NCBI GenBank assembly: GCA_903851445.1 | Contig: CAINOH010000009.1 | Span: forward strand, 23,908 to 87,907 | Origin: an uncultured Candidatus Micrarchaeota archaeon | GTDB lineage: Archaea; Micrarchaeota; Micrarchaeia; Norongarragalinales; CAINOH01 | DNA length: 64,000 nt | Direction of reading: 5' to 3' | Shown here: positions 11,270 through 58,979 of the stretch, piece by piece | Layout of the letters: the number at the start of each line of letters is the position of its first letter | Position numbering within the stretch: position 1 is the stretch's first letter | Made by a program: the position numbers and the translations under genes | Notes under the pieces: model-generated | Seen by the model: only the letters and a program-made list of their open reading frames with translations | Database searches by the model: none | Told to the model about the DNA's origin: nothing

Positions 11270-11272
11270 AAG

Positions 11273-12843: not shown

Positions 12844-12875
12844 GGAAAATAGCCAAAGCGCACGTTCTGTTCCCA

Positions 12876-13802: not shown

Positions 13803-13907
13803 TGGCCAGCCGCGGAGCAGGACAACTGCCGGCTGATGCGAAGCGCATATAATGATTGTTGCCCAAAGTCGTCTTACAAACTTTCAACAAGAAAAGGTCG
13901 GTTGCCT

Positions 13908-14639: not shown

Positions 14640-14641
14640 AA

Positions 14642-14929
14642 TCAGCGCCTAGCCTTCATCTTCTCGCCGACAAAGTTGATGAGGTCGCGGAGCTTCTTTT
14701 CCATGGTCGGGTAGTCAACGAGCTCATCCAGGCCGGTAAGCATCGACGCTACCTCGGGCTTGATTTTTAGGTACTCGCGCTCAAGCTGCTCCAGCCGCGA
14801 CGCGAGCTCGCCTATCTCATTCTGCGTACGCCTTCGGTAATCCAGGACGAAGTATATGGCAACCACGAGCACGACCATGGATGCTGCAAAGAGCCCGAAA
14901 GCGAGTGCCGACATACTGACAAGGGCCAT
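14642..14929 (-). CDS. Small membrane-anchored coiled-coil protein
   Basis: N-terminal TM helix, then a charged heptad-like segment (ELASRLEQLEREYLKIK). Confidence 0.4.
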   Translation of the reverse strand: MALVSMSALAFGLFAASMVVLVVAIYFVLDYRRRTQNEIGELASRLEQLEREYLKIKPEVASMLTGLDELVDYPTMEKKLRDLINFVGEKMKARR

Positions 14930-15240
14930 TACACTACGCCCCCCTCTATGACTGCTGACGTCAGGTCCCTAGCCTGCTTTGTGATGCTCTGCATCGCGTT
15001 GCGCGTAATCTTCCTCTCAAGCCCGGCTTTCGCATCCTGGATGCTTTGCGCCATCGCTGCAGACTCGGCGTGCGCCGCGTCAATCCTGGCCGAAAGCTCC
15101 GCCACCTTCGCAACCGCACCGTCGTGCGCCCTCTTTGCAAGGACGAACGCCACAAAAGCGCCCGCTAATGACACTAGGAAACAGAACCCCGCAACGTAGA
15201 CGTCTTCGACCATAGGAACATCAGGCAAAATCAACTGCAC
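14929..15240 (-). CDS. Small membrane-anchored coiled-coil protein
   Basis: TM helix then an Ala/Lys-rich helix. Overlaps the upstream pilin stop by 10 nt and the downstream gene by 1 nt. Confidence 0.4.
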   Translation of the reverse strand: MQLILPDVPMVEDVYVAGFCFLVSLAGAFVAFVLAKRAHDGAVAKVAELSARIDAAHAESAAMAQSIQDAKAGLERKITRNAMQSITKQARDLTSAVIEGGVV

Positions 15241-15710
15241 GTCCCGACGAGCGGCCTTGCGCCAGTCTGCCTCATGGAATAGTTCATGAAGTTGTACAGG
15301 ATGTTCACCTGCACCTCGAAGGCCTTGCCGGACGCGGTATAGACGCAGGGGTTTCCGCTTGTAAAGCTTGACACGTAAATGGCGTTCTCCTCGCCAGCTG
15401 AGAATACGTGGTAGCCCGTGCTCAGGTTATTGACGTTGCCCACGCTGTCTACGAACTGCATCTCGGTGACGTTGAGGCTGTCGGAGCCGCGGTTGGCAAG
15501 AACAAGCAGCGCGGTGCCGTTCATGACCTTGAATGCCGTGATTGAGAAGGGCGTGGCGGTCTTCCAGTAGGACTCCGACTCCCTTTCCCTGCCGGGCCCG
15601 CCCACTTGCGGGAACCAGCCCAAAAGCGCTATGACGACCATCGCCACTAGAAGCACCGCGCCCAAAATGACAAGATATTCCGTTGCGCCCTGCCCCTTTG
15701 AGCGGACCAT
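15231..15710 (-). CDS. Major-pilin-like protein (class III signal peptide), paralog 3
   Basis: MVRSKGQGATEYLVILGAVLLVAMVVIALLGWFP...; many NxS/T sequons; C-terminal ...LVGTCS. Confidence 0.75.
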   Translation of the reverse strand: MVRSKGQGATEYLVILGAVLLVAMVVIALLGWFPQVGGPGRERESESYWKTATPFSITAFKVMNGTALLVLANRGSDSLNVTEMQFVDSVGNVNNLSTGYHVFSAGEENAIYVSSFTSGNPCVYTASGKAFEVQVNILYNFMNYSMRQTGARPLVGTCS

Positions 15711-15870
15711 ACAATCACCTATATTGCAAATGAAATTGGCTTATGCAAAGGGAACGGAAAAGGGGAATAAAAAAGTAGGTTTTGGGAACAACTTGCCCCA
15801 TCGCCCGAAAGGGCACAAGGAGCAGAGGGAGAAAAAGAAAAACAAAAAAAAGAAAAAAGGGAATTGGTGC

Positions 15871-16380
15871 TTACGAGCACCTTCCAACCAGGGACTGCGC
15901 GCCCTGCTGTCGAATCCCGGTAATCGACCCCTGGGTGTAGCCGAACGCCACAATCTTGAGCTCGAACGGGTTGCCCGTCTTCGAAGTGACTCCGTTGCAC
16001 GGGTTGGTGGCGTTGACGCCTACTAAGAAAGTGAAAGGCACAGTAACCACTGCTTCCTCGCCTCCGTTGAAAGACTGGGCCGGACTCGCTACGACGTATG
16101 TAAACGTACTCGTTCCATTAGGAATTTCAATCGAAGTCAGGGTCAGTGCGTCAGAAAGCCTGTTTGAAAGCGAGAAGGTCATTGTCGTGTTGTCGACCTT
16201 GAACGAGTTTATCGCAAACGGGCTTGCACCGGACCAGTACGCCTTGGACTGCTGCTCCTTTGTAGAGCCGCCGAGCGCGGGGAACCAGCCAAGAAGGCTT
16301 ACTACTACAAGCGCGACAAGCAACACTGCGCCCAATATGACAAGATATTCCGTTGCGCCCTGACCTCTTGAGTAGACCAT
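15871..16380 (-). CDS. Major-pilin-like protein, paralog 2
   Basis: MVYSRGQGATEYLVILGAVLLVALVVVSLLGWFPALGGSTKEQQSKAYWSGASPFAINSFK...IRQQGAQSLVGRCS. Confidence 0.8.
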   Translation of the reverse strand: MVYSRGQGATEYLVILGAVLLVALVVVSLLGWFPALGGSTKEQQSKAYWSGASPFAINSFKVDNTTMTFSLSNRLSDALTLTSIEIPNGTSTFTYVVASPAQSFNGGEEAVVTVPFTFLVGVNATNPCNGVTSKTGNPFELKIVAFGYTQGSITGIRQQGAQSLVGRCS

Positions 16381-16542
16381 ATCATCACCTATACCTATAT
16401 TGCAAATGAAATTGACTTATGTAAAGGAACGGAAAGGGAGAATAAAAAAGTAGGTTTTGGGCCTTGTTCTTTTGGGCGATGGGAAAACTAAAGGAATGGT
16501 GAGAAAAAGAAAAACTAAAAAAAGAAAAAAGGGAATTGGTGC

Positions 16543-17040
16543 TTACGAGCACCTTCCAACCAGGGACTGCGCGCCCTGCTGGCGAATCCCGGTAATCGCC
16601 CCAGAGGTGTAGGTGAACGCCACAATCTTGATCTCAAACGGATTGCCCGTCTTGGACGCGCCCGATGAGTAGCACGGGTTGGTGGAATTTGCGACGGTCG
16701 TAGTAACCACCGCTTCCTCGCCCCCGTTGAAGGCCTTGGCCGGCCACGCTACCGTATATGTAAACGTGCCCGTTCCATTAGGTATGTCAATCCCAGTCAG
16801 GGTCAGCGAGTCAGAAAGCCTGTTTGAAAGCGAGAAGGTCATTGTGGTGCCGTCAAGTTTGAACGAGTTTATCGCAAACGGGCTGGCGCCGGACCAGTAC
16901 GCCTTGGACTGCTGCTCCTTTGTAGAGCCGCCAAGCGCGGGAAACCAGCCAAGAAGGCTTACCACGACAAGAGCGACAAGCAAGACTGCGCCCAATATGA
17001 CAAGATACTCGGTCGCACCCTGCCCTCTCCTAAACTGCAT
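16543..17040 (-). CDS. Major-pilin-like protein, paralog 1
   Basis: MQFRRGQGATEYLVILGAVLLVALVVVSLLGWFPALGGSTKEQQSKAYWSGASPFAINSFK..., ~85% identical to paralog 2. Confidence 0.8.
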   Translation of the reverse strand: MQFRRGQGATEYLVILGAVLLVALVVVSLLGWFPALGGSTKEQQSKAYWSGASPFAINSFKLDGTTMTFSLSNRLSDSLTLTGIDIPNGTGTFTYTVAWPAKAFNGGEEAVVTTTVANSTNPCYSSGASKTGNPFEIKIVAFTYTSGAITGIRQQGAQSLVGRCS

Positions 17041-17233
17041 TGTAAACCACCTTAAATGAAAATGGACTAAGAAATCAAGATGCCGAGTTTATTTAAATAG
17101 GTTGCTTAACTCCGGCGTTTTCGCGCAAACCCAACGCCCAACGCCATACTTTCTCCTCTAATAAAAGCGATGGCTTTTTAAAGAGCCGAACAGAAATGAC
17201 ATAAAATAATTGATACAAAAAGGTGAACTGCTG

Positions 17234-17620
17234 ATGTCTGAAACAAAGAGGGGCCAGGGCGCGTTCGAGTACATTCTGATGCTGTCGGGAGTGCTCCTGA
17301 TAGTGATACTCATAATATTCATACTCCAAGGGACGATAACGGGAACAAACAACACTATGGGAACACAGCAAAACACGCTCAACAGCACAGTAAACGTGGA
17401 CATAGTACCGCAATACACGCAATGTTTGATAGTCACAAGTGCAACTGGCAGCATCACCGGACCATCATACCCCTGCTGCGTCCTTAACGGAGCCGCAAAC
17501 CTTGCCGCATGCACAGCAGCAGGATGCGCCGGAGTACCTGGGATTGTTCAATGCACCCAAACCACACTTGCCAGCTGTCCGACAAGCCAGTTCAACAGGA
17601 AAATAGGAAGGTGCGCGTAA
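17234..17620 (+). CDS. Cysteine-rich mini-pilin (family member 1)
   Basis: MSETKRGQGAFEYILMLSGVLLIVILIIFILQGTITGTNNTM... then PCC...C...C...FNRKIGRCA. Confidence 0.7.
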   Translation: MSETKRGQGAFEYILMLSGVLLIVILIIFILQGTITGTNNTMGTQQNTLNSTVNVDIVPQYTQCLIVTSATGSITGPSYPCCVLNGAANLAACTAAGCAGVPGIVQCTQTTLASCPTSQFNRKIGRCA

Positions 17621-17662
17621 GCGCACACTTTCCCCATCTTTCTTAAGAGGTGAACAAGGAAT

Positions 17663-18001
17663 ATGAGACGCGGACAAGGCGCATTTGAATACATACTCAT
17701 GCTTTCGGGGGTACTGCTGATTGTGATAATCATCATATTCATACTCCAGGGGACAATCGGCGGGGCGAACAACACGATGACAGCACAGCAAAACACCTAC
17801 AACACGTCAGTGTCCGTGGATATCGTGCCCCAGTACACGGCAAACCTAATAGTGATGAGCCAGACTGGCGGACTTGGCGGCCCATACCCCTGCTGTGAAA
17901 ACTTCGCTACGCCAGGATGCACCGGAGTAATAATCAACTGCACCGGCACGCTCAACTGCTATTCAAGCAGGTTCGACAGGAAAGTAGGAAGGTGCGTATA
18001 A
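17663..18001 (+). CDS. Cysteine-rich mini-pilin (family member 2)
   Basis: MRRGQGAFEYILMLSGVLLIVIIIIFILQGTIGGANNTM...PCCENFATPGCTGVIINCTGTLNCYSSRFDRKVGRCV. Confidence 0.75.
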   Translation: MRRGQGAFEYILMLSGVLLIVIIIIFILQGTIGGANNTMTAQQNTYNTSVSVDIVPQYTANLIVMSQTGGLGGPYPCCENFATPGCTGVIINCTGTLNCYSSRFDRKVGRCV

Positions 18002-18042
18002 GCGCATTGCCTCTCTTTTTTTATTTTTAAATAATTGAAATA

Positions 18043-18420
18043 GTGATTGGGACTATGATGAGGCGCGGCCAGGGGGCATTTGAGTACATCCTGATGCTGT
18101 CCGGGGTGATTCTCGTGGTCATAATCATCCTGCTCATACTGCAGGGCAGCATCTCATCCACAAACAACACGCTTGCGGACAACGAGAACAAGTTTGGAAC
18201 CTATACGACGGTCGACTTTGACAACCACCGGACGCCCAACCTGTACGTGGCTGAGCAGACGGGTACTACCACAATAACAAACACGCCCTGCTGCTCGAAC
18301 GTGAACTCGTCTACAGTAAAATGCTACGGCCCGAACAGCGTATCGAGCACCACCATATGCAGCGCAAACATCACGTGCCCGTCGAAATACTTCAACAACG
18401 CAACTGGCACCTGCGGCTGA
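18043..18420 (+). CDS. Cysteine-rich mini-pilin (family member 3)
   Basis: ...MMRRGQGAFEYILMLSGVILVVIIILLILQGSISSTNNTL...PCCSNVNSSTVKCYG...CSANITCPSKYFNNATGTCG. Confidence 0.7.
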   Translation: MIGTMMRRGQGAFEYILMLSGVILVVIIILLILQGSISSTNNTLADNENKFGTYTTVDFDNHRTPNLYVAEQTGTTTITNTPCCSNVNSSTVKCYGPNSVSSTTICSANITCPSKYFNNATGTCG

Positions 18421-18482
18421 GAAAGAAATAATATAAAAAAAACATTAGCTATAGCAGGAACTTTACTACGAGGAGAATAAAA

Positions 18483-18830
18483 TTGCGGCGCGGGCAGAAC
18501 TATTACGGGATAATGCTCGTGTGCGTGCTCGCGCTCACCCTCGGCACCATCTTCCTGCTTTCACAGGCGCCGCCGGCAATCAACGCCTCGCTTTCAAGCT
18601 CGCAGGACAGGCTTGACAACGGCTCGATTTCGGGGGTTGCACCCCAAGGCGACGCGGACCTTCTTGTGCTAAGGCGCACGGGCAACGTCGCAGTCGACTC
18701 CGCCATTCCCTGCTGCGCGAACGCCAAAAGCGGATGTGGTGGAAACGCGGCCAACTGCACCTATTCAAATGGCAACAGCCTGTCGTGCTTTTCCCGGCTT
18801 TTCGACACTGACGCCGGCTCTTGCGCATAG
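18483..18830 (+). CDS. Cysteine-rich mini-pilin (divergent family member 4; TTG start)
   Basis: MRRGQNYYGIMLVCVLALTLGTIFLL...PCCANAKSGCGGNAANCTYSNGNSLSCFSRLFDTDAGSCA. An aggagaataaaa motif lies upstream. Confidence 0.55.
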   Translation: MRRGQNYYGIMLVCVLALTLGTIFLLSQAPPAINASLSSSQDRLDNGSISGVAPQGDADLLVLRRTGNVAVDSAIPCCANAKSGCGGNAANCTYSNGNSLSCFSRLFDTDAGSCA

Positions 18831-18892
18831 CAAGAATACGCCGCGGATGTTTTCTGCAAAGAATATTAAGCGCTGCAAGAGTAGCGAATAAT

Positions 18893-19078
18893 ATGAAGCG
18901 GAAAGGCCTTGGGCAGCGCGGGCAGACGTCGACGGAGTACATGCTGCTCATAGCCCTCGGCCTGACAATAGTGATTGTCTCGATCGCAATAGCAACCCAG
19001 ATCAAGGGGATGACCGACTCGCTTCTGGTGCGCGCGCAGGTTGAGCGCGAGTCCACAATCTCTATGATTGTGCGCTGA
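18893..19078 (+). CDS. Minor pilin-like protein (61 aa)
   Basis: MKRKGLGQRGQTSTEYMLLIALGLTIVIVSIAIATQIKG... Confidence 0.55.
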   Translation: MKRKGLGQRGQTSTEYMLLIALGLTIVIVSIAIATQIKGMTDSLLVRAQVERESTISMIVR

Positions 19079-19139
19079 TTGTTTCCCAGCAAGGGCGTTG
19101 CTTCAAAACCAATATTAGTACCCGCAGGCCACACTTTGC

Positions 19140-20183
19140 TTGACAACACTTATGACGGACTTCCTGCTTTTCGCCTTTGCAGCTGCCTATTGCGCAACCG
19201 CCTGCTACATTGACATCAGGCATAGGACAATACCGGACTGGCTCACTTACGGCGGCATCGCAGCCGGGCTTGCCCTTGGCGGCCTCAACTGCCTTGCCCT
19301 GGGAGGTGCCTTTGCTTTGCAATACACGCTGATGCTTGCAACCGCGCTTGCCCTGGGCTACCTCCTGTTCGCCCTTGGCGTGTGGGCCGGCGGCGACGCA
19401 AAATTATTCTGGGCGTTTGCCGCGCTGCTTGGCGCTGCAAGCCGTGCAGACGTGCTCCTTCCGGTTGTGCTGTTTGCGGCCTCGGCGCTGCTTTTCCTTG
19501 CCTGGACGTTCGTTTCGAACGCGGGAACCATACTGAAGAAAAGAAGGGAGTGCACGCGAATAGCTGTTGATTCGGCAGCAAAGGCAGTTGGCGCGGCGGC
19601 AGTTGCCTCGCTTTTTGCCAGCGGCCTTGGCGCGGATTACATCCTTGCGGCAATCGTTGCAGTTGCATTTCTTCTTGTGCAGCTGCCGAAATACGCCTGG
19701 CTGGCGATATTGCTTGTTGCGCTTGCCTTGAACGCCGACGCAACCACAGTCGCGTTCCCGCTCTCCTTTTTGCTTGCATCCGCAATAGGGACGGTGGCGG
19801 GAATAGGCTCGAAAGTCATTGCGCCCAGCCTCACCTACAAAGTGCGCAAGGCCGACCTTGAGGAAGGGATGCTGCCAGCGTACACGGTGATTGAAAATAA
19901 CGGCAAGGCGGTGCTGTTTCGGCCAATGTTCGACTTGGGCGGAATAATCAAGGCAGCACGAAAGGAAAGCGATGTGAAAAAAATCCTCCAAAAAGCGGGT
20001 GCGATTCCGCCTGCCGGCTCAAAAATAGTCGCGGATTCCGCAGACGCGGCCGGGCTTGAAGCTTCGCAATTGCAGAGGTTAAAAAAGCTGGGAAATGTTA
20101 GATGGTTGCAAGTGCGGAGGACAACGGCATTCGCGCCGGTCCTTTGCGTTTGCTTTCTTGCGGCGCTTGCCGGGTTGTTCTGA
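19140..20183 (+). CDS. Prepilin/preflagellin peptidase (A24 aspartic peptidase, PibD/FlaK-like) with a C-terminal extension
   Basis: Two catalytic Asp motifs at canonical spacing: CYIDIRHRTIPD (D~24) and GVWAGGDAKLFWAF (GGDxK, D~86). Eight or more TM helices. TTG start. Confidence 0.75.
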   Translation: MTTLMTDFLLFAFAAAYCATACYIDIRHRTIPDWLTYGGIAAGLALGGLNCLALGGAFALQYTLMLATALALGYLLFALGVWAGGDAKLFWAFAALLGAASRADVLLPVVLFAASALLFLAWTFVSNAGTILKKRRECTRIAVDSAAKAVGAAAVASLFASGLGADYILAAIVAVAFLLVQLPKYAWLAILLVALALNADATTVAFPLSFLLASAIGTVAGIGSKVIAPSLTYKVRKADLEEGMLPAYTVIENNGKAVLFRPMFDLGGIIKAARKESDVKKILQKAGAIPPAGSKIVADSADAAGLEASQLQRLKKLGNVRWLQVRRTTAFAPVLCVCFLAALAGLF

Positions 20184-33943: not shown

Positions 33944-34343
33944 TGCAACACGAAGACTTCTCGTCACGCGACCACGATTGGGAAAATTGCGTATGAAGCC
34001 GGCTATGGGCCAAAACAAACCCGCGCCAACCACTTACCCAAAACGCCAACAAGCGGCGGGTAACTCCCCAAGCAGATGGGTGCTTTTGGGACTTAAAAAG
34101 GTGATGAAAACAACAAAAAACAGGGAGTGATTTCTTTGGAAAAAAGCGTCTTGTGTGAAAAAAAAGGCATACTAAAGCCTATTTTCTAAAAAGGAGGATA
34201 ATTAGACGTCTATTTTGTAAAAATAGGCAGGAAATAAGAAAACAAAAAAATACTGGAAGTGTGGTTTGCAAGGAGCATAATGCGCCGGATTGACAAATAG
34301 ACGAAAAATAATGCTTTTCTAGGCAAAACGAGTAAGAAAAACA

Positions 34344-35345
34344 CTATTTCTTTCCAATCAAGGACATTTGAGCCAGTAATGCTTCAAGTTGGATGGTTTC
34401 GTCTGCGCCCATGACCATGCGGAAGTCGTATTCGCCAATCTTGTCAACCAGCGCGACCTTCTGCTCGTCAGGGATTGACAGGCCGGTGACTTCACGGTAA
34501 ATGGAAATCAGGACGTCCTCTCCTGCCAGGCCGTACTTGCCCATTATTTCCCAAAGCATCTTTCGCGCTGAAGAAAAGTCGCCCTTGACTGCGGTTGTGA
34601 CCATAATGGCGACTTCCTTTGGGGTTGCGCGCGAAGCGACCTTGAAAATTGACTGCGCGGTGACTTTTGCGGAAAGAGAGCAAGCGCCTTGGAGGACGTT
34701 GGCTGCCTTCCGGGCGTCGCCTTCGGAAACTGCTACAACGGCATCCCTGACGTCCTTTTCCAGGTGCAGGTTCTCGTGCTTTGCGATGTTGTCGACAATC
34801 TTGCCTATGTGCTCGTCGGACAGCGCAAGGAAGCGGAATACCGCGCACCTGCTCTGGATTGGCTCGATTACCCTGCTTGAATAGTTGCAGCTTAGGATGA
34901 AGCGCGTGTTCTCCGAATAGCGCTCCATTGTGCGGCGCAGCGCCTGCTGGGCCTCTGCAGTAAGGGCATCTGCCTCGTCCAGGAAGATTATCTTGAACGG
35001 CACCGAGGCAAGGGGAATGGAACGGGCGAAGTCCTTGATTTTTCCGCGCACGATGTCGATTCCCCGCTCGTCGCTTGCATTAAGCTCAAGGAAACACTCG
35101 CGATACGCCTCGCCGTAAAGCTCGTGGGCAAGCGCAAGCACGCAGGTGGTCTTTCCTATGCCTGCTCGGCCTGCAAAGAGCATATGCGGCATCTCCTTTG
35201 CCGCAACGTACGCCTCGAGCCTGCTTACTATGTGTTCTTGGCCTACGACTTCGGAGAGCTTTTTCGGCCGGTACTTCTCAATCCACGGCTCGTAATCCGC
35301 CTTGGACCTTTCCTTCCTGGCCGGTTCGGCTTCCTTGAGGGTCAT
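34344..35345 (-). CDS. rfcS: Replication factor C small subunit
   Basis: Walker A GRAGIGKTTCVLALAHELYG, RFC box ELNASDERGIDIVR, DEAD-like FLDEADALT, SRC motif ILSCNYSSRVIEPIQSRCAVFRF. Confidence 0.9.
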   Translation of the reverse strand: MTLKEAEPARKERSKADYEPWIEKYRPKKLSEVVGQEHIVSRLEAYVAAKEMPHMLFAGRAGIGKTTCVLALAHELYGEAYRECFLELNASDERGIDIVRGKIKDFARSIPLASVPFKIIFLDEADALTAEAQQALRRTMERYSENTRFILSCNYSSRVIEPIQSRCAVFRFLALSDEHIGKIVDNIAKHENLHLEKDVRDAVVAVSEGDARKAANVLQGACSLSAKVTAQSIFKVASRATPKEVAIMVTTAVKGDFSSARKMLWEIMGKYGLAGEDVLISIYREVTGLSIPDEQKVALVDKIGEYDFRMVMGADETIQLEALLAQMSLIGKK

Positions 35346-35379
35346 ATTCCTTGCACCGCAATAAACGTAAAATCAGATA

Positions 35380-36780
35380 GAAATGGAGTGAAACTCCTTT
35401 TTCGAACAATCAGTTAAGCAAATACAATCTTTAATAGCCGTTGCTCGAACTTGACTGTGACATGCAACCGAGATATGGTTTTTGCTCGGAAAGGTGAATC
35501 ACCCCGACTTGGTGTAAACCGAAGTCGCGGCTTCTTCCTTCAATGACGAGCCTGTTGGTTCATCTCCGGAAGCGTTTCTTCCCGCCATTCCAGCGGTAGC
35601 TCTTGTGAGTATATTTATAGCAGCGTTCACATCCCTATCCAAGACTAGGCCGCAGTGCGGACAATCGTGCGTCCGCACAGTCAAGTCTTTCTTGACTACC
35701 TCGTGACAACTGCTACATTCTTGTGTAGTATTCTTCGCATCAACGAACACGACCTTGCAACCAGCACCCGCCGCCTTGTATGCTATCATGTTCGAGAACG
35801 TTCCCCAACCAACATCATTGATTTGCTTGCCGTAATTCTGTTCAGCCATCCGCCGAACCGCAAGCCGTTCTAGGCCAATTAAGGAATACGAATTTACGAG
35901 CGACGTGGTTGTCTTGTGCAGGAAGTCACTACGAGCGTTGGCTATCTTCTCGTGCACCAAAGCTACCTTGCGCTTAGTTTTAAGTCTGTTCCTGCTGCCA
36001 TTCTTCGCTCGCGATAATCTCCGCTCGCACTTCGCCAACTTGTCTCGATGTTTGTCAAAGTGGCGCGGATTTTTAATCTTCAAACCGTTCGACAACGTGG
36101 CGAACGTAGTCAAACCCAAATCAATCCCGACTTTTCCGCCGTTGTTCATCAACGGTTCTACGTCATCCTGTCCGGCAGTGAAAATCGCGAACCACTTGCC
36201 CGAAGCTTCTTTCTTCAGAGTCAGGGTTTTTACTTCGCCTTTGATTGGACGGTGTTGCCTGATACCCAACTCGCCAAAAGGCGTGACCCGCAACTTTTTG
36301 TCCGATAAAATTTTGAAACCAGACTGAGGGTAATGCAAACTCTTCATTCTATCAAAGGATTTGAATCTTGGAAAGCCTCCGTTTAAACCTGCTTTTTTAC
36401 GTCTAATCTTGACTCTCAATGCATTAGTAAGACGAATGAAAACATCCTGCGCTACCTGCGAGTGCAACCCAGAACCCTTGCTTATTTCCTGCAAAGTCTT
36501 TCGCGTTGGAAACTTTCCAAAATCATCATACAACTGTTTCGCCAACGCCAAGCCATAGTTCCACAAGTTCTTAGAAGCCCACAAGTGAGTCCGCAACAAC
36601 TCGTCCTGCTGCTTGGATGGATACAAACGAAACTTCCAAGATATCATAAGCTATACGCCTATAATACTGCAAAACCTTTTTGGTTTATACGCTATTCCAC
36701 ACTGCATTTCCGTTGATTCGTTTCCATCCCCACCAATGGTTCAGACGTGGACGTCTCAACGACCAGATTTATAATCCGAG
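35380..36780 (-). mobile_element. Solo-tnpB IS200/IS605-like element (no tnpA); approximate boundaries
   Basis: tnpB without an adjacent Y1 transposase. AT-richer flanks relative to the ~60% GC surroundings. Ends not mapped. Confidence 0.45.
35499..36647 (-). CDS. tnpB: IS200/IS605-family TnpB (OrfB) RNA-guided endonuclease-like protein
   Basis: N-terminus MISWKFRLYPSKQQDELLRTHLWASKNLWNYG is the classic OrfB_IS605 start. RuvC-like core. C-terminal zinc finger CSSCHEVVKKDLTVRTHDCPHCGLVLDRDVNAAINIL. Confidence 0.85.
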   Translation of the reverse strand: MISWKFRLYPSKQQDELLRTHLWASKNLWNYGLALAKQLYDDFGKFPTRKTLQEISKGSGLHSQVAQDVFIRLTNALRVKIRRKKAGLNGGFPRFKSFDRMKSLHYPQSGFKILSDKKLRVTPFGELGIRQHRPIKGEVKTLTLKKEASGKWFAIFTAGQDDVEPLMNNGGKVGIDLGLTTFATLSNGLKIKNPRHFDKHRDKLAKCERRLSRAKNGSRNRLKTKRKVALVHEKIANARSDFLHKTTTSLVNSYSLIGLERLAVRRMAEQNYGKQINDVGWGTFSNMIAYKAAGAGCKVVFVDAKNTTQECSSCHEVVKKDLTVRTHDCPHCGLVLDRDVNAAINILTRATAGMAGRNASGDEPTGSSLKEEAATSVYTKSG

Positions 36781-36835
36781 CGTGACAAATGCAATCGGAA
36801 GCCGAACGCCGCTTTCAGAGAAAAGGTGATTGCTT

Positions 36836-37186
36836 ATGCAGGCTACTGACCCGGACGTGCTCATCTCAACTACTTGCGAAGTCCCTGGCTTCAAGACCAA
36901 GAAATACGTAGGCGTGGTATGGGCATCAAGCGCGCGCACCCTTGACACTGCAAGCGAAATCGGCGCGATGATCCGCAGCATCGGAGGCGGCGACCTTCCC
37001 GCTTTCCGCAAGATGCTCAACGAAGCCAGGCATTCGGTTCTGCACGAGCTTGCCGCAACAGCCAAGGCCCGGGGCGCGAACGCGGTCGTAGGAATGAAGC
37101 TTGAAAGCTCAAGCATAGTCGGCGGAACGCTCGACGTCTATGCCTATGGGACTGCCGTAGTGGTGGAGAAGGAGACTAAGAAGTAG
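36836..37186 (+). CDS. YbjQ/UPF0145 (DUF74) family protein
   Basis: Alignable to E. coli YbjQ: ...GVVWASSARTLDTASEIGAMIRSIGGGDLPAFRKMLNEARHSVLHELAATAKARGANAVVGMKLESSSIVGGTLDVYAYGTAVVVE. Confidence 0.75.
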   Translation: MQATDPDVLISTTCEVPGFKTKKYVGVVWASSARTLDTASEIGAMIRSIGGGDLPAFRKMLNEARHSVLHELAATAKARGANAVVGMKLESSSIVGGTLDVYAYGTAVVVEKETKK

Positions 37187-37229
37187 ACTATTGGAAAAAT
37201 ACAGAAAAAGATTGAGAAAAAAGGAACTA

Positions 37230-37433
37230 CGCTGCCTTGAAGGCAGTCCTCTTTGCCGGGGTTCCCCAGCAGGTCTTGCAGATTATGTGGCGCTCGCCCT
37301 TTACGCGCCTGCGGGAGAGTTTGCTTGACTTTTCGCAGGCGTGGCAGACCTTGCGCTTGCACTGGCCGCACTGCTCGAGAAGGTGCGCCTCGCGGCCGCA
37401 CTTTTCGCACTTTTTGGAAGAAACTGGCTTGAC
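37230..37433 (-). CDS. Candidate small zinc-ribbon protein (4 CxxC pairs) with no canonical start codon
   Basis: Own minus-strand translation: (V)KPVSSKKCEKCGREAHLLEQCGQCKRKVCHACEKSSKLSRRRVKGERHIICKTCWGTPAKRTAFKAA*. Eight Cys in four CxxC pairs. No in-frame ATG/GTG/TTG after the upstream TGA. Confidence 0.3.
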
Positions 37434-37574
37434 TATACAAATACACCCTTGTAAGATACAATATTCATTGACGGCTTGAAGCCTTCAAAATGAGTATATT
37501 GTCTTTTGCGAAGAAAATTAATAAAGTTGCTTAAGAGTGAAGGATTGCCCCGAAAAGGCGGTTGTTTGCTCAAA

Positions 37575-38939
37575 ATGACAAAAAAGGCAGATGAAGGCAT
37601 TATGAAGGCAAAGCCCATTGCGGCCAAAAAGGCGAAAGAACCCGTTTCCGCCGCCCAAAAGGTCTTCTTTCTCACCTACGGATGCACGTTCAACGCCGCG
37701 GATACCGATGCTTTGAAGGAAGCGGCAAAAAAGGAATTCGGACTGGCAGGAAAGGAATCGGATGCCGACGTAATAGTGATGAACACCTGCTCGGTCAAGG
37801 ACTCGACGCAGGAAAAGATATTGTTCAAGGCAAGAAGGCTCGGCTCGCAGGGAAAGAAGCTGGTGATTACGGGCTGCCTTGCGCAAGTGTCGCCCGAAAT
37901 AATTGAAAATGCAGTGCCAAGGGCGAGCATTGTCGGCGTTTGGTCGAATGCCAAAATAGTTGATGCGATTGAAATTGCGTTGGCAGGAAAGAAAATAATC
38001 CAGACCAGAAAAACCTTGGTCCTTCCATTCAACGTCGCAGTTGACAGAATCTTTGCGCGCGCGCAGATAAGCCGCGGGTGCCTCGGCAACTGCACATACT
38101 GCTCGACAAAACTCGCCCGCGGCCGCCTTGAGAGCTTCCAGCAGGACGAAATCGTGGCTGCTGTAGGGTCGGCAGTTGCACGCGGCGCGAAGGAAATCCA
38201 GCTTACCAGCCAGGACACGGCCTGCTATGGGTTTGACTTCGAAGGCAACGGGAACGGCCAGCGCGAAAATCTCGCCACGCTTGTTGAAAGAATCTGCGCC
38301 ATTCCCGGGCGCTTCCGGGTGCGAATCGGGATGGGAAAACCCGAGCATTTCTGGAAGATACGGAAGGAGCTTGCAAGAGTGATTTGCTCAACGGACAAGG
38401 TTTACCGCTTCCTGCACATACCCGTGCAAAGCGGGAGTGACGCAGTCCTTATGGCGATGGGCCGCAGGTATGCTGCAAAGGACTATGCGGAGCTTGTGCA
38501 GTTTTTCCACGAAGAAATCCCGGACCTTACAGTTGAAACGGACGTCATCGTGGGCTTTCCTACTGAGACGCAGAAGGACTTCGAGGCCACGCTCGACCTG
38601 GTTGAAAGGACAAGGCCGCAGATTACCAACATATCGAAATACAGCGCAAGGCCGAAGACCGTTGCCGCGGGAATGAAGCAGGTTGACAGGAAGACAATCA
38701 ACGCACGCAGCACGAAGATGAACGCGCTGTGCAGGAAAATCGCGCTGGAAGAGAATGGGAAGATGGCTGGAAAAAAATACGATGTTCTGGTCACCGAAAA
38801 GGCGAAGGGCTTCTTTTCAGCGAGGACGCCGAACTACAAGACGGTGCTCCTGCAAGGCGGCGCCATTGGCTCATTTATTACGGCAAGGACTACCGGTTAC
38901 GGCCAATGCTACCTGAAAGGAAGGGTTGCGGAAAAATGA
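37575..38939 (+). CDS. mtaB: Radical-SAM methylthiotransferase (MiaB/MtaB family, archaeal e-MtaB-like)
   Basis: N-terminal MTTase domain (FFLTYGCTFNAADTDAL), radical-SAM CLGNCTYCSTKLARG (CxxxCxxC), C-terminal TRAM-like region. Start could be 37506, 37575 or 37599. Confidence 0.8.
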   Translation: MTKKADEGIMKAKPIAAKKAKEPVSAAQKVFFLTYGCTFNAADTDALKEAAKKEFGLAGKESDADVIVMNTCSVKDSTQEKILFKARRLGSQGKKLVITGCLAQVSPEIIENAVPRASIVGVWSNAKIVDAIEIALAGKKIIQTRKTLVLPFNVAVDRIFARAQISRGCLGNCTYCSTKLARGRLESFQQDEIVAAVGSAVARGAKEIQLTSQDTACYGFDFEGNGNGQRENLATLVERICAIPGRFRVRIGMGKPEHFWKIRKELARVICSTDKVYRFLHIPVQSGSDAVLMAMGRRYAAKDYAELVQFFHEEIPDLTVETDVIVGFPTETQKDFEATLDLVERTRPQITNISKYSARPKTVAAGMKQVDRKTINARSTKMNALCRKIALEENGKMAGKKYDVLVTEKAKGFFSARTPNYKTVLLQGGAIGSFITARTTGYGQCYLKGRVAEK

Positions 38940-46558: not shown

Positions 46559-48382
46559 ATGTCTCGTCGCGGCCAGGGCGCATTTGAGTACCTTCTGATG
46601 CTTGGAGGAACAGTACTAATCGCAGTAGTAGTCATCATAATGGTACAAGGTTCCGCCCAGAACGCGAACAGCACGCTCAACGAGTCAACAAACGACTATT
46701 TGGCATACATAAATAGTGGAATCAACAATGCGATTGCAACCACTCCAACGCCTATTGTAACTGTTTTGCCTTCGTCAACCCCAACCACCAGCCCAACGCC
46801 ATCCTCAACTCCCACGGTAACTCCAATGCCTACCACTACCCCGACTGCAACGCCAACGGCTACTCCTACGCCCACATCAATGCCTACTACTACGCCAACT
46901 GCAACAGCTACCGCAACGCCAACTGCTACGCCCACACCCACTACGAGTCCGACGCCAATTCCTACTGCAACGTCCACGCCAACACCTACTGCTAACCCAA
47001 CAGCAACGCCAACCGCAACGTCCACGCCAACACCTACTGCTAACCCAACCGCAACGTCCACGCCAACACCTACTGCTAACCCAACAGCAACGCCAACTGC
47101 TACGCCCACTCCCACCGCAACCCCCGTGACAACTGGAAGCGCCATCATAACGACGAGCCCAGGAGGGGCGCAGGTAATGGTCGATGGCCAGCAGAAGGGG
47201 GTGTCAAGTCCTAGTCTCACAGTTTCTTCCCTGGCGCCGGGAACACACGTCGTGAGGGTTTCAATGCAGGGCTATTTTGACGCGTCGCTTAACGCTGTCG
47301 TACAACTCGGACAGGCCACGCCGGTGACGATTAGCCTCATCTCGCTCTCCGTCCCCACGCCAACACCGGTGCAGGTACCAGCAAGCCCGAAACTGACGTG
47401 CGATTACTCCTTTGCGGCTATCCCGCCGGTGACGAAGACTATCGCGCGGTCGGGAAGCGCCGCGGGAGTGCGCATCGGGTTCTCCGAGGATTTCGGCGCA
47501 ATCGCCACGAGCTTCGAACTCGTAAATCCCGCGAACGGCGCCTCAGTCAACGTGCTAGAGTCACGCAGCGGAGCGGGTTCGGCGTGGCAGTACACTGGCC
47601 AGGCTACCGCTTACGACGGTGGCGGTGCCCTCATCAACCAGGCAGCCGGCAACTCCCTCGGCTCCCAGTGGGGGTACCAGAGCGTGCTCAATGTGAACAC
47701 TTCGGCGACGGGAGTAACGGCATCGGCAGCGAACTGGGTCCCAAATCCTTCAGACACGCTCAACGGTGACGGAACGTCTCCCTGTGCGTCCCAGTATCCC
47801 CCGGCAGTCTTTGACCTCGGCAAGCCCTCGATGAGCGTCAGCGACATTGCGACGTCGCTGGGGACCGCACTCAACATCACGAGCACATATACGCTTCAGT
47901 CGACCATCGACCAATATTGGAAAATGTACGTTCCCGGCGAAGCAATCTACATGAACAGGCAGGTAGCCCGCGACGCCAACCTGCGCATGTACATCCTAGG
48001 ACCAGGCTGGACGGAAGGTCCCATTCGGCCGTACTACGACAATTTCACCATAGCCCACGCCACGTACGTGCGCCCTGTTCCACAGTGGGGGGTATGGATG
48101 ATTACCGCAGATGTCCAGTACACTGCGTTCGTGTGGAACGTGGGTGGAAAGGACGTCGGCGTCGTGCTTCCGGGCGCGAAGGGCTCCCAGCGGCTGGTGA
48201 ACAATACCTACTGCTCCAACGAGGCGGATTACAGCTGCGGCAGCATGGACTATGGTTTTTGGGAACAACTCGATCAGAGTTCCTCATATCCTAACGGGGC
48301 AATCCGCAGCTACTCCTTCGGCTACCTTGTCGGCTCGGTGCCCCAGCTTGAAGCCATCATAGGCAGGTCCATCACGGGTTAA
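46559..48382 (+). CDS. Large pilin-adhesin: class III signal peptide + Pro/Thr linker + PEGA domain + globular C-terminal domain
   Basis: MSRRGQGAFEYLLMLGGTVLIAVVVIIMVQG...; ~135 aa TPTATP-type linker; SPGGAQVMVDGQQKGVSSPSLTVSSLAPGTHVVRVSMQGYFDASLNAVVQ matches the PEGA motif; ~370 aa C-terminal domain. Confidence 0.7.
   Translation: MSRRGQGAFEYLLMLGGTVLIAVVVIIMVQGSAQNANSTLNESTNDYLAYINSGINNAIATTPTPIVTVLPSSTPTTSPTPSSTPTVTPMPTTTPTATPTATPTPTSMPTTTPTATATATPTATPTPTTSPTPIPTATSTPTPTANPTATPTATSTPTPTANPTATSTPTPTANPTATPTATPTPTATPVTTGSAIITTSPGGAQVMVDGQQKGVSSPSLTVSSLAPGTHVVRVSMQGYFDASLNAVVQLGQATPVTISLISLSVPTPTPVQVPASPKLTCDYSFAAIPPVTKTIARSGSAAGVRIGFSEDFGAIATSFELVNPANGASVNVLESRSGAGSAWQYTGQATAYDGGGALINQAAGNSLGSQWGYQSVLNVNTSATGVTASAANWVPNPSDTLNGDGTSPCASQYPPAVFDLGKPSMSVSDIATSLGTALNITSTYTLQSTIDQYWKMYVPGEAIYMNRQVARDANLRMYILGPGWTEGPIRPYYDNFTIAHATYVRPVPQWGVWMITADVQYTAFVWNVGGKDVGVVLPGAKGSQRLVNNTYCSNEADYSCGSMDYGFWEQLDQSSSYPNGAIRSYSFGYLVGSVPQLEAIIGRSITG
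46740..47147 (+). repeat. Imperfect tandem DNA repeats (36/48-bp units, acgtccacgccaacacctactgctaacccaac...) encoding the Pro/Thr linker
   Basis: Units begin at 46970, 47018 and 47054. These produce the antisense [12 protein letters not shown] at 46696..47220. Confidence 0.7.
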
Positions 48383-49643: not shown

Positions 49644-50096
49644 ATGCCCAACCACGGCCAAGGCGCCTTCGAATATCTCCTGATGCTTGGCGGCGTCGTG
49701 CTCGTCGCAGTAATCGTCATAATCATTATGCAGGGTTCGGCTTCCGGGGCAAACAACGCGCTGAACACATCCGCTTCGAGTTACGGCTCGTTTATCACGA
49801 CCGGCGTAGAGAACGTGCTTACGACGGGGTCGGTGAATGGGGCGTCACTCGTTAAATTGACCTGCACCGCAGGCACGGACACCAGCGATATGATTAGCAA
49901 CAATGTAAACTGCAACTCGGCGTGCCAGGCCGCAGGGTATTCAAGCGGGACGACGGTATGCGCCGTCCCTGGCTGCAGCGCGTCATGCAAAAACTGCAGG
50001 CAGATTTCCTGCTATGGCACAGCCTGGAACATAATCACCGACGACTGCTCCAAACCGGGTTCTTGCAAAATTGACAATTGCTACTGCTCCCCCTGA
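49644..50096 (+). CDS. Cysteine-rich pilin (class III signal peptide)
   Basis: MPNHGQGAFEYLLMLGGVVLVAVIVIIIMQGSASGANNALN...; 16 Cys in the C-terminal 90 aa. Confidence 0.65.
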   Translation: MPNHGQGAFEYLLMLGGVVLVAVIVIIIMQGSASGANNALNTSASSYGSFITTGVENVLTTGSVNGASLVKLTCTAGTDTSDMISNNVNCNSACQAAGYSSGTTVCAVPGCSASCKNCRQISCYGTAWNIITDDCSKPGSCKIDNCYCSP

Positions 50097-50168
50097 TTCA
50101 GCAAAGATGCCGGCTTTTTGATGCGCCTGCGGCGATTCCTTTTTATTGCCCGCGACAATGGTCTTTCT

Positions 50169-51728
50169 ATGAAGCTGCGCGGCCAGACTGCCCTTGAATA
50201 CCTGCTGATTCTTGCCGGAAGCATAATGATAGTCATCGTCACCTCAAGCGTGCTCAACGGCGTGATGGCACCCGGGATGGAAATCGTGGGCAACAACAGC
50301 ACGCCCCTGCTGTGGCCCCCGTCAGGTGAGTGCGGCCTTGCCGCAACCGTTTACGGTTCCTCTGCAACGGGATACTCCGGGGCCTTCTGCGCTGTTGGAA
50401 CGCCAAACCCAACCCCTGTTTTTCCACCTCAAGGCAGCTCGGTAACGTGGTTCTGTAATGTAACAGATGGCGGGTACAACGCGTCATGTTCAGCGTCAAG
50501 GGCAGCAACATCCACCCCGACGCCTACTCCGACACCATTACCAGTTAATGGTGCTTGCGGAATCAGCAGCGCATACGCACTCACGGCAACAACCAGCGGG
50601 CTCTGCTCAAGCGGAACGGTCTACTCATTCGCCGGCACGGGGCCGTGGACTTGGTTCTGCAATGGCACAAACGGCGGTACGGACGCGAGCTGCACAGCAA
50701 CAGTAATAGTGGACGGCACCTGTGGAACTTCAAACGGGGCAAACCTTACCGCAGCGCCAACAACAAACCTGTGCTCCAATGGGACTAATTCCAGCGTCTC
50801 CGGCACAGGACCGTGGACGTGGTTCTGCAATGGCACGAACGGCGGCACGAACGCCAGTTGCTGGGCAAACGTCATCATCAACAACGGCGGTGCCTGCGGA
50901 ACAGCTGCAAAGAGGTATGCGTACAATGTCACATCATATGGCACTGACACCATCTGCAATGCCGGAATCGCTTCTCCCTCCAGCCCGGCATTCCCAACCC
51001 AAGGAGCGTCAGTTTCTTGGAGGTGCATAGAAGTTAACCTGCCTGAAATTACGATTAATGTTTGCACAGCTTCAAGAGCAGCAGCCCCTGTTAATGGTGC
51101 TTGCGGCACTGCCTCAAAGACATATGTGTACACTGCCACCAGCTATGGAACGGACACGTTCTGCGCCAATGGCACCGCCAGCCCAGCAAGCCCGGCATTC
51201 CCGGCCCAAGGACAAACAATTCCTTGGACTTGCGTGGGAACAAACAACGGAACCAACGCATCCTGTTCCGCCACCAGGCCGGCCAAGATTAATGGTGAGT
51301 GTATAACTTCTGCCTACTTTTCAAACCTTAATGTTTTCAGCTGCGGATATTCCGAAATGCACGATAAAATCGGCAGCCCCGTACTCAGTTGGTGCGTGGC
51401 TGGAAGTATGACTAGTTACACTGGCGGATATACTGGACCTTGGACATGGAAATGCCTCGGAGCATACGGCGGAACCAATGCGTCCTGCTCTGCCTCTCAT
51501 ACAAGTGAATATCATCCGAGTTTTACTTGCGGTTACTCTGGACGCACAACTGCCGCTTGCGTAGCCGCCGGAGGGTACGTTGACTGGTCCGTGTGTGACG
51601 GTTGCGGGTTCTGCAAAAGTTACAGTGCAGCACGTGGTTCGGGCTACTGTGATTTCCTGACAATTGCTAATGTTCCTGCTATTCCTTATGGTTATTTTGA
51701 TAATGGCGTATATTGGGGTTGCATATAG
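50169..51728 (+). CDS. Large pilin-adhesin with six tandem Cys4 repeat modules
   Basis: MKLRGQTALEYLLILAGSIMIVIVTSSVLNG...; modules of ~55-65 aa, e.g. NGACGISSAYALTATTSGLCSSGTVYSFAGTGPWTWFCNGTNGGTDASCTA, repeated six times. Confidence 0.65.
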   Translation: MKLRGQTALEYLLILAGSIMIVIVTSSVLNGVMAPGMEIVGNNSTPLLWPPSGECGLAATVYGSSATGYSGAFCAVGTPNPTPVFPPQGSSVTWFCNVTDGGYNASCSASRAATSTPTPTPTPLPVNGACGISSAYALTATTSGLCSSGTVYSFAGTGPWTWFCNGTNGGTDASCTATVIVDGTCGTSNGANLTAAPTTNLCSNGTNSSVSGTGPWTWFCNGTNGGTNASCWANVIINNGGACGTAAKRYAYNVTSYGTDTICNAGIASPSSPAFPTQGASVSWRCIEVNLPEITINVCTASRAAAPVNGACGTASKTYVYTATSYGTDTFCANGTASPASPAFPAQGQTIPWTCVGTNNGTNASCSATRPAKINGECITSAYFSNLNVFSCGYSEMHDKIGSPVLSWCVAGSMTSYTGGYTGPWTWKCLGAYGGTNASCSASHTSEYHPSFTCGYSGRTTAACVAAGGYVDWSVCDGCGFCKSYSAARGSGYCDFLTIANVPAIPYGYFDNGVYWGCI

Positions 51729-51889
51729 AGTTCCGTTCTTTTTGGCTGAGATTTTACCTCGGGCTTTTGCCTTATTGTAGTGTGAGGGTCTCAATCTCCT
51801 AAGCACTGGCTCGTGTGCAAATAAATCGGCTACATCTCAAACCGCGCAACCTGCGCGGCATTTTTATTGCACGACTGCGTCTAGTGCAT

Positions 51890-57374: not shown

Positions 57375-58979
57375 TCACGACCCCGTGTATCCGCCGTCGG
57401 TTATCGTCCAACCGTTGTTTGCAATTAGCGTGGTGTTCCTTGCCGTGACCGAGGCGGAAGAGTAACGGGATTTGCCGCCATCAAAAGTAACTCCCGACTG
57501 AACCGAATGGCTTGCCCAGCCGTTGAGGAGAGCGTCGTAATTGGTGGTTGACAGCGTCACGCCGGAGAACATCCCGCGCATATCAGTTACACTTTTTGTG
57601 TTCCATTTGCCTATCGGCTGGTTGAAAGCAGACGCGTTGGCAAACATATACTTCATTGTCCAGACTTTCCCCATATCCCAGCCGCCAATAGGCTGGTTGA
57701 ATGAATGCGCGTTGGCAAACATCCAGTCAATGGAACTGACGCTGCTCGTATTCCAGCCCGAGACGTTGCCATTGAACGCCGACGCGCCGGAAAACACGCC
57801 AGACATGAATATGGCATTGCGCGTATCCCATCCGCTTAAGTTCTGGTTGAATGCAGGCGCGCCCGCAAACATTCCATTCATCATTACTACGCTTCTGGTG
57901 TTCCAGTTGCCTATCGGCTGGTTGAACGAAGACGCATACCCAAACGTGCTGTACATATCTACTACGCGGCTGGTGTTCCAATTGCCTATCGGTTGGTTGA
58001 ACGAAGACGCCCAACCAAACATGTTATTCATGGTTATGACGCTGCTGGTATCCCAGCCGGTAATGTTGCCGTTGAAGGAGGTCGCATTGTAGAACATGAA
58101 GTCGAGCGAGGTCAGGCCGGTAAGGTTGAGGCTGTCCGAACCTATGAAGTTCATGTTTGAGCAGCCGTAGAAGGTGCCGCAGGAGCTTGCGGTGTACCTG
58201 AAAACGCCATAGCAGCCGCCGCATTCGGCGTCTGGGGGGGAGCCCGGAGGGCAGATGTCGCTCGAACAGCCCAAGGTGCCCGAGTAGGCGCGGATGTAGG
58301 GATTGTAATTTCCGATGTTCAAGTCGCCCCAGTGGGTGATGTTGATTATCTTCAGCTTGTCCCCGCCATTGTTGAACGAAAAGCTCGTTTCGTTCGTGTT
58401 GGTGACGTTAATCGTGTAAACTCCCGGCGAGACATACACGTGCGTGGTGATGTTAGAGTCTGACCTGCCGTCGCCCCAGTTTACCGAGAAATAACCTGTT
58501 ATCGGGAGCACGATTGTCGTGGAGTTGCTGCCGGTGCCACCGATCTTGCGCGTGTCCCAAACCGCGCTGAATGGCGAAGGCTTTGGAGTCGGGCTGGGCG
58601 TGGGGCTTGGAGTGGGCGTTGCGGTAGGTGTTGCAGTAGGCGTCGCAGTCGGCGTGGGACTGGCCGTTGGTGTTGCAGTAGCAGTGGGTGTAGGAGTTGC
58701 AGTAGGAGCGGGTGTCGGACTCGGCGTAGGTGTGGGCGTAGCAGTTGGCGTTGCGGTAGTTGTTGCTGTCGGAGTAGCAGTAGGCGTTGGAGTTACTGTG
58801 GATGGGGTTATGCCGTAGTTCTGTACTAACTCCCAATAGGTGCTTGACTGATTAGTAACGGAATTGTTTGCCTGGCCTTGCGAGGCCTGCACGACCATCA
58901 GGGTGATGGCTGCAATGAGCACGCTGCCGCCTATCATCAACAGGTATTCGAATGCGGCCTGGCCGCGGGAAACTGACAT
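57375..58979 (-). CDS. Pilin-adhesin fusion: class III signal peptide + Pro/Thr linker + DUF285-type tandem repeats
   Basis: [33 protein letters not shown]...; ~80 aa TPTATP linker; repeated ~26-aa units F(G/A)[24 protein letters not shown] characteristic of DUF285 repeats. Confidence 0.7.
58572..58808 (-). repeat. Low-complexity tandem DNA repeats encoding the Pro/Thr linker of the DUF285 pilin-adhesin
   Basis: Produces the antisense [13 protein letters not shown] (58519..58818). Confidence 0.65.

Follow-up and report, generated by a model that had tools for sequence, protein, structure and literature searches.

A predicted pilin-anchored protein of a micrarchaeon carries six modules of a large, mostly bacterial Cys4 repeat family missing from the libraries searched

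Archaeal proteins with class III signal peptides (PF04021) are processed by A24 peptidases of the PibD/EppA type. Modular type IV pilins, such as PilB of Streptococcus sanguinis, comprise more than 1,200 proteins in 264 architectures, some of them with many repeated motifs, and many of the added modules lack a signature in databases (Raynaud et al. 2021; PMC8179133). Here we analyse a gene at positions 50169-51728 (+ strand) in a stretch of 64,000 nucleotides from an uncultured Candidatus Micrarchaeota archaeon (contig CAINOH010000009.1), which is referred to as the window. The 519-residue product combines a pilin-type N-terminus with six cysteine-rich modules and a C-terminal tail of its own kind. 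The module belongs to a very large, mostly bacterial family that is undescribed in the libraries searched, and it is neither rare nor local.

A first-pass annotation, made from the letters of the DNA, had described a class III N-terminus followed by six modules of ~55-65 residues, each with four Cys. A hidden Markov model (HMM) trained solely on modules from other organisms matches six modules, with independent E-values (i-E) from 3e-10 to 6e-23; it matched none of 200 shuffles of the protein and nothing besides this protein in the six-frame translation of the window. The repeat is genuine and far beyond chance. The modules occupy residues 52-110, 126-178, 181-234, 239-302, 308-369 and 374-443 and are 53-70 residues long, a somewhat wider range than proposed. 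Five of them have four Cys, while module 6 has five (378, 392, 409, 429 and 440), and the layout was incomplete in that a separate, non-repeat tail follows the last module. The parts of the gene are given below, together with confidence values from AlphaFold2 (AF2) models, namely the predicted local distance difference test (pLDDT) and the predicted template modelling score (pTM); P0006, a protein of 659 residues, is the closest full-length relative.

50140 to 50147, + strand: TATA-like element TTTTTATT, read from the sequence, 22 nucleotides 5' of the ATG
50169 to 50183, + strand: leader peptide MKLRG of the class III signal (PF04021, 23.6 bits, and a motif shared within the window)
50184 to 50255, + strand: hydrophobic N-terminal helix, residues 6-29, QTALEYLLILAGSIMIVIVTSSVL, candidate pilin-type membrane or filament anchor (AF2 helix 5-29)
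50256 to 50321, + strand: linker, residues 30-51, of low confidence (pLDDT <50 at 29-48 in the full-length AF2 model)
50322 to 50498, + strand: module 1, residues 52-110, long FPxQG subtype, four Cys (i-E 4e-12; pLDDT ~90-95)
50499 to 50543, + strand: Thr/Pro-rich linker, residues 111-125, RAATSTPTPTPTPLP (pLDDT <50 at 116-122)
50544 to 50702, + strand: module 2, residues 126-178, short GPWTW subtype, four Cys (i-E 5e-19)
50709 to 50870, + strand: module 3, residues 181-234, short subtype, four Cys (i-E 6e-23; modelled singly, AF2 pLDDT 96 and pTM 0.75)
50883 to 51074, + strand: module 4, residues 239-302, long subtype, four Cys (i-E 3e-10)
51090 to 51275, + strand: module 5, residues 308-369, long subtype, four Cys (i-E 6.5e-18; 63% identical to P0006 residues 449-511)
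51288 to 51497, + strand: module 6, residues 374-443, with a core of the short type, an N-terminal extension or insert and five Cys (insert 389-405 with pLDDT <50)
51498 to 51725, + strand: C-terminal tail of 76 residues, non-repeat, seven Cys (including CDGCGFC), candidate distal tip (53% identical to the P0006 tail)
51736 to 51743, + strand: T-rich run 3' of the stop codon, read from the sequence, candidate archaeal terminator

The core that had been quoted for every module, GTGPWTW(F/K)C..G..GGT.ASC, is present in modules 2, 3 and 6 and limited to them; modules 1, 4 and 5 have FPxQGxx(V/I)xWxC. All six fit a Cys4 unit of ~54 residues, 'NGxCG...LCxxG...GPWxWxCxGxNGG...C', with C5, C22, W38, C40 and C51. 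Module 4 is the most divergent, with NLPEITINVC in place of NGGTNASC, and the five-Cys variant of module 6 is also present in P0006 (residues 516-586). The whole protein contains 32 Cys, and G, T, A, S and N are abundant in it.

The suggestion that the module fits no known repeat family agrees with all library searches. Pfam-A (2025) and NCBIfam r20 returned no family over residues 52-443 at E<=10, save a chance match to NCBIfam Dpp5 with 12 bits against a cutoff of 900. PHROGs v4 gave no match at E<=0.01 and a profile search of PDB sequences none at E<=10, while the check proposed earlier, a Foldseek search of the single-module model against the PDB, found no fold match (best E 5.2). The literature searched contains no description of the module. 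Modules 2-3 had no tblastn match in INPHARED phages and PLSDB plasmids, and a scan of genome contigs with the full protein yielded 42 pattern matches, none of them confirmed.

Of the 8,000 candidates scored in a word-indexed search with the full-length sequence, 448 matched at E<=1e-3; they originate from Paceibacterota, Micrarchaeia, Syntrophobacteraceae, Alphaproteobacteria, Bdellovibrionales and others. The best 120 of these 448 contain 667 module instances with a modal length of 54 residues, and 571 of the 589 complete ones have exactly four Cys. From 130 diverse modules we built profile A1 (consensus xNGxCGxANGxxxxxxPxxxLCxxGTASxVxGxGPWxWxCxGxNGGxxAxCxAx), which at E<=1e-3 matched 6,091 representatives of clusters formed at 50% identity; at E<=1e-10 and at E<=1e-30 the numbers are 3,293 and 811. 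Some proteins contain as many as 43 matched stretches, and some reach 5,587 residues. Across 1,976 unique complete modules C5, C22, C40 and C51 are conserved to at least 99.7% and W38 to 100%. Both subtypes are widespread; 1,370 of 2,356 unique instances are short and 214 long. Members of the family are found in Patescibacteria, Bdellovibrionales, Micavibrio, many Proteobacteria and Acidobacteriota, and also in a few DPANN archaea and on some viral contigs. With a degenerate DNA pattern for G[ST]GPW[TS]WxCxG at least 119 genome loci were located, at least 112 of them with true modules. The following raw counts of loci among the matches listed, grouped by record title, show presence in a group, not enrichment.

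Patescibacteria: at least 38 loci, 8 of them in the cultured archaeal parasite Minisyncoccus archaeiphilus
Alphaproteobacteria, including Micavibrio: at least 23 loci
Deltaproteobacteria-type: at least 15 loci
Beta/Gammaproteobacteria (Ottowia, Thiobaca, Thiocystis, others): at least 13 loci
Bdellovibrionales: at least 8 loci
Acidobacteriota: at least 8 loci
Other groups: at least 6 loci
Micrarchaeia: at least 1 locus

In Minisyncoccus archaeiphilus PMX.108 (NZ_AP038758.1; loci L101, L103, L109, L112, L023 and L051) at least six proteins consist of a bacterial prepilin N-terminus followed by one to three Cys4 modules, and this organism also encodes a secreted protein with at least 12 modules. 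Free-living Betaproteobacteria of the genus Ottowia (loci L022, L057 and L073) carry a single module between LRR-like regions and a C-terminal VPTLSEW, which is followed by a hydrophobic stretch and Arg; this is a sorting signal that we take to resemble IPTL-CTERM. Among the 251 family proteins that were fetched, 27 start with a bacterial prepilin and five with an archaeal class III N-terminus.

The partner domains in the homologues are very diverse (N_methyl pilin, Class_IIIsignal, OmpA, cellulase, GH16, GH26, peptidase C1, PKD, Kelch, cohesin, propellers, LRR), so the module appears to be a portable extracellular building block. In IMG/VR viral contigs single modules occur in 10 open reading frames (ORFs), several with beta-helix/tailspike-like regions, and one BFVD phage protein contains a module with 46% identity and a template modelling (TM) score of 0.80. 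The co-occurrence with cellulase (PF00150), GH16, GH26, a phage protein with a chitobiase C-terminal domain and the tailspike-like viral ORFs would also fit a carbohydrate-binding module, which would make the protein a multivalent lectin with glycans, e.g. of a host S-layer or cell wall, bound by each repeat and not by the tail. Conserved aromatic residues at positions 36 and 38, and often an aromatic one at 13, point in the same direction. However, the module stands beside many non-glycan domains as well, it forms the long arrays mentioned above, and neither its sequence nor its fold matches a known carbohydrate-binding module. Moreover, W38 is as invariant as the four Cys; by their alternating positions W36, W38 and C40 would share the same side of a strand, and a core role of W36 and W38 is likely. 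We therefore consider repeat-by-repeat glycan binding rather improbable.

The full-length AF2 model (mean pLDDT 76.6, pTM 0.44) shows the N-terminal helix, six confident modules and low-confidence linkers, which fits a beads-on-a-string arrangement. When compared with the PDB, this model retrieved only generic strings of small beta-domains (such as titin, the GhpA grappling hook, S-layer proteins and the ectodomains of Ig and cadherin proteins) at TM <=0.23 and a root-mean-square deviation of ~20 Å, an architectural analogy and not homology.

Two independent modules, one of them from the complete Minisyncoccus genome, have jointly lost the first and the fourth Cys while the second and the third are kept. 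This joint loss suggests that each module probably contains two nested disulfides, C5-C51 (C1-C4) and C22-C40 (C2-C3). Four invariant Cys per module could in principle coordinate a metal instead, in the manner of a zinc ribbon or rubredoxin, and the tail adds a CxxCxxC motif and a weak match to Fer4 (PF00037). At 12.8 bits (E 0.11) this match stays below the cutoff of 21.1 for the 4Fe-4S cluster-binding motif CxxCxxCxxxCP, and it lies in an extracellular context. Metal binding is nevertheless very hard to reconcile with the Cys spacings of ~17, 18 and 11, which leave no CxxC knuckles, with the extracellular context and export signals throughout the family and with the pairwise loss of C1 and C4, and no zinc ribbon appeared among the Foldseek results from the PDB.

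The + strand ORF is stop-free on translation, with the ATG at 50169 and the stop codon at 51726-51728, and gene callers yield the same 519-residue product on other contigs. An alternative in-frame TTG at 50118, which would add 17 residues, is disfavoured, since a TATA-like element lies at 50140-50147, class III leaders are short and the gene callers agree on the ATG. By general knowledge of archaeal promoters, the position of this element suggests a promoter dedicated to the gene and a transcript that lacks a leader. Two ORFs of the opposite strand, 50621-51139 and 51321-51806, are treated as shadow ORFs of the conserved coding region in the + frame.

The N-terminus MKLRGQTALEYLLILAGSIMIVIV matches Pfam Class_IIIsignal (PF04021) with 23.6 bits and E 4.9e-5, next to a cutoff of 23.7. 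It has the layout of a class III signal, a short charged leader (MKLRG) followed by a hydrophobic stretch (QTALEYLLILAGSIMIVIVTSSVL), and its motif [KRH]GQxxxE[YM]L recurs in 12 other ORFs of the window (13 in total). From what is established for archaeal class III signals, prepilin peptidase is predicted to cleave after Gly5, so that Gln6 would become residue +1 and Glu residue +5. Genes for processing and assembly are found in the same window:

8874 to 12298, + strand: pilus assembly core identified by Pfam (T2SSE ATPase 8874-10370; T2SSF 10367-11269 and 11273-12298), with a putative role for this protein
19140 to 20183, + strand: prepilin peptidase identified by Pfam (Peptidase_A24 and Arc_PepC), the presumed processing enzyme of this protein

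Taken together, the near-cutoff score, the shared motif and the prepilin peptidase make a pilin-type N-terminus well supported, in line with the anchoring that the first-pass annotation had assumed. The assembly core and the peptidase lie in a complete-looking archaeal type IV pilus cluster (8874-20183). It also contains eight short pilin-like ORFs of class III, which are spread over both strands and include three near-identical tandem pairs.

The class III signal might serve export and membrane anchoring alone, so that the protein would be part of the cell envelope or coat and would never enter a filament. The full-length model contains no globular pilin head between the helix and module 1, only ~22 low-confidence residues. 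Furthermore, the gene lies amid housekeeping genes ~30 kb from the pilus cluster, and the 13 class III ORFs of the window include large multidomain proteins (PEGA, PKD, DUF285), so that the signal is apparently used broadly. On the other hand, bacterial relatives of the same architecture have a full pilin head. We hold an envelope protein of this kind to be plausible, though less likely than not.

The C-terminal tail is far more restricted than the modules. Among the 251 fetched family proteins it is present only in P0006. A search for homologues of the tail by itself gave neither shared words nor matches, and a metagenome scan with module 6 plus tail led to four loci related at the module level only, with no further tail. 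Comparison with PDB sequences gave only chance matches to GH1/Klotho (E>=0.13), and there was no Pfam match. Three further proteins with a Micrarchaeota-type class III signal, P0004, P0021 and P0113, also end in Cys-rich tails that differ from each other, and another Cys-rich protein is encoded directly upstream of the gene:

49644 to 50096, + strand: class III protein of 150 residues with a Cys-rich C-terminal half, co-directional, 72 nucleotides upstream of the gene and adjoining it on every contig found

This neighbour resembles the tail by eye (ACxAAGY...VC..GC...CK), with a BLASTP match that is not significant (E 0.17). In an alignment of five tails with the small upstream neighbour, an HTxxxCxxxGG motif and a terminal Cys are all that is shared, which does not suffice for a homology call. 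Such mutually different Cys-rich tails would be in keeping with tips that diverge rapidly. Together, module 6 and the tail contain 12 Cys, and the odd fifth Cys of module 6 may therefore pair with the tail.

Neighbouring modules had been noted to be most alike, and this is indeed the case for modules 2 and 3 (66% protein identity) and modules 4 and 5 (55%), compared to 30-53% for the other pairs. The conclusion drawn from it, a recent internal duplication, does not stand. A young and fast-expanding tandem array would account for the similarity of adjacent modules, but modules 2 and 3 are only 63% identical in DNA and use the same codon in 16 of 35 identical residues. In addition, a Paceibacterota module is 70% identical to module 3, against 62% for module 2. 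The array is also collinear in module order with a bacterial homologue, and both subtypes are widespread, as stated above. A young duplication is thus contradicted and highly improbable, and from the scrambled synonymous sites and the closer external module the likeness of modules 2 and 3 is read as family-wide constraint, not recency.

The collinear homologue is P0006, which is 43% identical over 499 residues (module 1 50%, module 5 63%, the five-Cys module 6 44%, tail 53%). At its N-terminus a bacterial prepilin motif, KAFTLIELLV, precedes a pilin head of ~110 residues and the first module. The gene is located at 10001-11980 of locus L134 (JGI 3300009692, contig Ga0116171_10000033) next to genes for MurJ, LepA, DivIC, RF-1, L25, L31 and an SLT-type protein, and these bacterial hallmark neighbours assign P0006 to a bacterium. 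Members of the P0006 cluster are labelled "Candidatus Pacearchaeota archaeon" at NCBI, which is probably a taxonomic mislabel of a small-genome bacterium. Identities of 44-63% across domains, in an overwhelmingly bacterial family, suggest a horizontal transfer with anchor replacement between archaeon and bacterium; from the taxonomic distribution, the direction would have been from bacterium to archaeon.

An archaeon closely related to the source (CDC48 94% identical) encodes a paralogous class III protein with seven modules, P0004. It was rejected as positional orthologue because its neighbourhood is different. P0004 (L131 1-7899; JGI 3300030493, on a contig of 1.23 Mb) is located directly downstream of two giant surface proteins, one of 1,594 residues with CarboxypepD_reg, Laminin_G_3 and Gly_rich_2 and one of 1,384 residues without family match, and the three look like a surface-protein island.

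We propose, with a probability of roughly 0.6, that the protein is a cell-surface protein that is exported and anchored like a type IV pilin, and in which a stalk of modules carries the tail as binding tip for attachment to a cell or surface. The A24 prepilin peptidase would remove the MKLRG leader after Gly5, and the helix of residues 6-29 would then anchor the protein, either in the membrane or within a type IV filament or at its tip. The headless ectodomain would consist of six beta-rich modules of ~54-70 residues, each probably with two nested disulfides around the invariant Trp. The most likely function of these modules is that of a stiffened stalk or spacer and of a generic contact surface. 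At the far end the fast-diverging, Cys-rich tail of 76 residues would provide the specific binding tip. Adhesion to a host cell is plausible for a DPANN archaeon, and also by analogy with modular pilins, for which the presentation of grafted binding modules is an established idea (PMC8179133). The protein contains 15 N-x-S/T sequons compared to 7.7 +/- 2.3 in the shuffled protein, an excess that would fit an N-glycosylated archaeal surface protein and is partly due to the module consensus itself (NGT, NAS).

Besides this share of the consensus in the sequon excess, several points weigh against the proposal. The Class_IIIsignal score is 0.1 bit below the curated Pfam cutoff, and the missing pilin globular domain and the distance of ~30 kb from the pilus cluster make incorporation into a filament uncertain. 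The disulfide pattern is deduced from two sequences and conservation, and the low pTM of the full-length model means that the relative orientation of the modules is not predicted. The tail (residues 448-519) has no confident model (pLDDT <50) and one known relative, so the tip role is a guess, and adhesion is argued from analogy.

On a broader and more speculative level, the Cys4 family with its variable Cys-rich tips might form a dedicated surface recognition toolkit of microbes that live or prey on other cells, among them Patescibacteria such as Minisyncoccus, DPANN, Bdellovibrionales, Micavibrio and some of their viruses. In such a scenario, which we regard as unlikely, the archaeon would have acquired the gene from a Patescibacteria-like bacterium, and exchange of the prepilin signal and head for a class III signal would have produced a host-attachment fibre.

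The surroundings of the gene are archaeal. The window encodes NurA, CDC48, RFC, PTH2, tRNA-splicing endonuclease, deoxyhypusine synthase and aRF1, and the named relatives of its CDC48, 69-78% identical, are all from Micrarchaeota, Micrarchaeia or Norongarragalinales, which places the source among the DPANN archaea. Two further large class III proteins are encoded near the gene:

46559 to 48382, + strand: class III protein of 607 residues with ~150 residues of Thr/Pro-rich repeats (TPTATPT...), PEGA and a C-terminal region of 330 residues without family match
57375 to 58979, - strand: class III protein of 534 residues with a weak PKD match and two DUF285 (Mycoplasma-type) repeats

A gene for IS605 OrfB/TnpB with a Cas12f-like TNB domain (35499-36647, - strand) lies within positions 34000-38000, where the G+C content is 0.49-0.50 compared to ~0.56 elsewhere, which suggests that this stretch is an inserted mobile element.

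That Pfam, NCBIfam and the PDB lack any entry for a family of more than 6,000 clusters, with up to 43 copies per protein and a confident predicted fold, marks a clear gap in annotation. Defining the module would provide labels for thousands of "hypothetical" surface proteins in Patescibacteria, DPANN and predatory bacteria, among them many pilin-type ones of Patescibacteria and DPANN. The module gives a testable lead on how these two groups attach to host cells and on the exchange of surface proteins across domains, and Minisyncoccus archaeiphilus, which parasitises methanogenic archaea and is in culture, would be tractable for studies of module function. The near-collinear bacterial relative with its swapped anchor type offers a concrete case of surface-protein exchange across domains between ultrasmall symbionts.

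In size (~50-60 residues), extracellular site and conserved Cys the module recalls the thrombospondin type 1 repeat (TSR), the Myxococcus cysteine-rich repeat (PF13948/TIGR02232) and EGF-like domains, and TSR shares a Trp and a three-stranded layout as well. This likeness is a lead only, as the number and spacing of the Cys differ, hmmscan gave no match to these families at E<=10 and Foldseek did not return them from the PDB. With tandem stalks of small beta-domains, such as Ig-like, PKD and Big arrays, titin, GhpA and S-layer proteins, the protein has the beads-on-a-string layout in common, but its module, roughly half as large as an Ig domain, is predicted to depend on two disulfides. Like other archaeal class III proteins it has the N-terminal motif, with peptidase and assembly genes in the same window; yet typical pilins, as the eight in the cluster at 12-19 kb, have ~120-170 residues compared to 519 here, and the ectodomain comes from a mainly bacterial family. 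The closest parallel is provided by the modular type IV pilins, to which P0006 and the Minisyncoccus proteins correspond exactly. The protein of the window resembles them in that non-pilin modules for display are grafted behind a class III signal and a hydrophobic helix. It differs in its archaeal signal (RGQxxxEYL), in lacking a pilin head and in the nature of the graft, which consists of six unannotated Cys4 modules and a tail without Pfam match in place of a vWA or lectin domain. A repeat-built, pilin-anchored surface protein is therefore of an already known kind and reveals no new kind of machine; the repeat family from which it is built, in contrast, is missing from every library searched.

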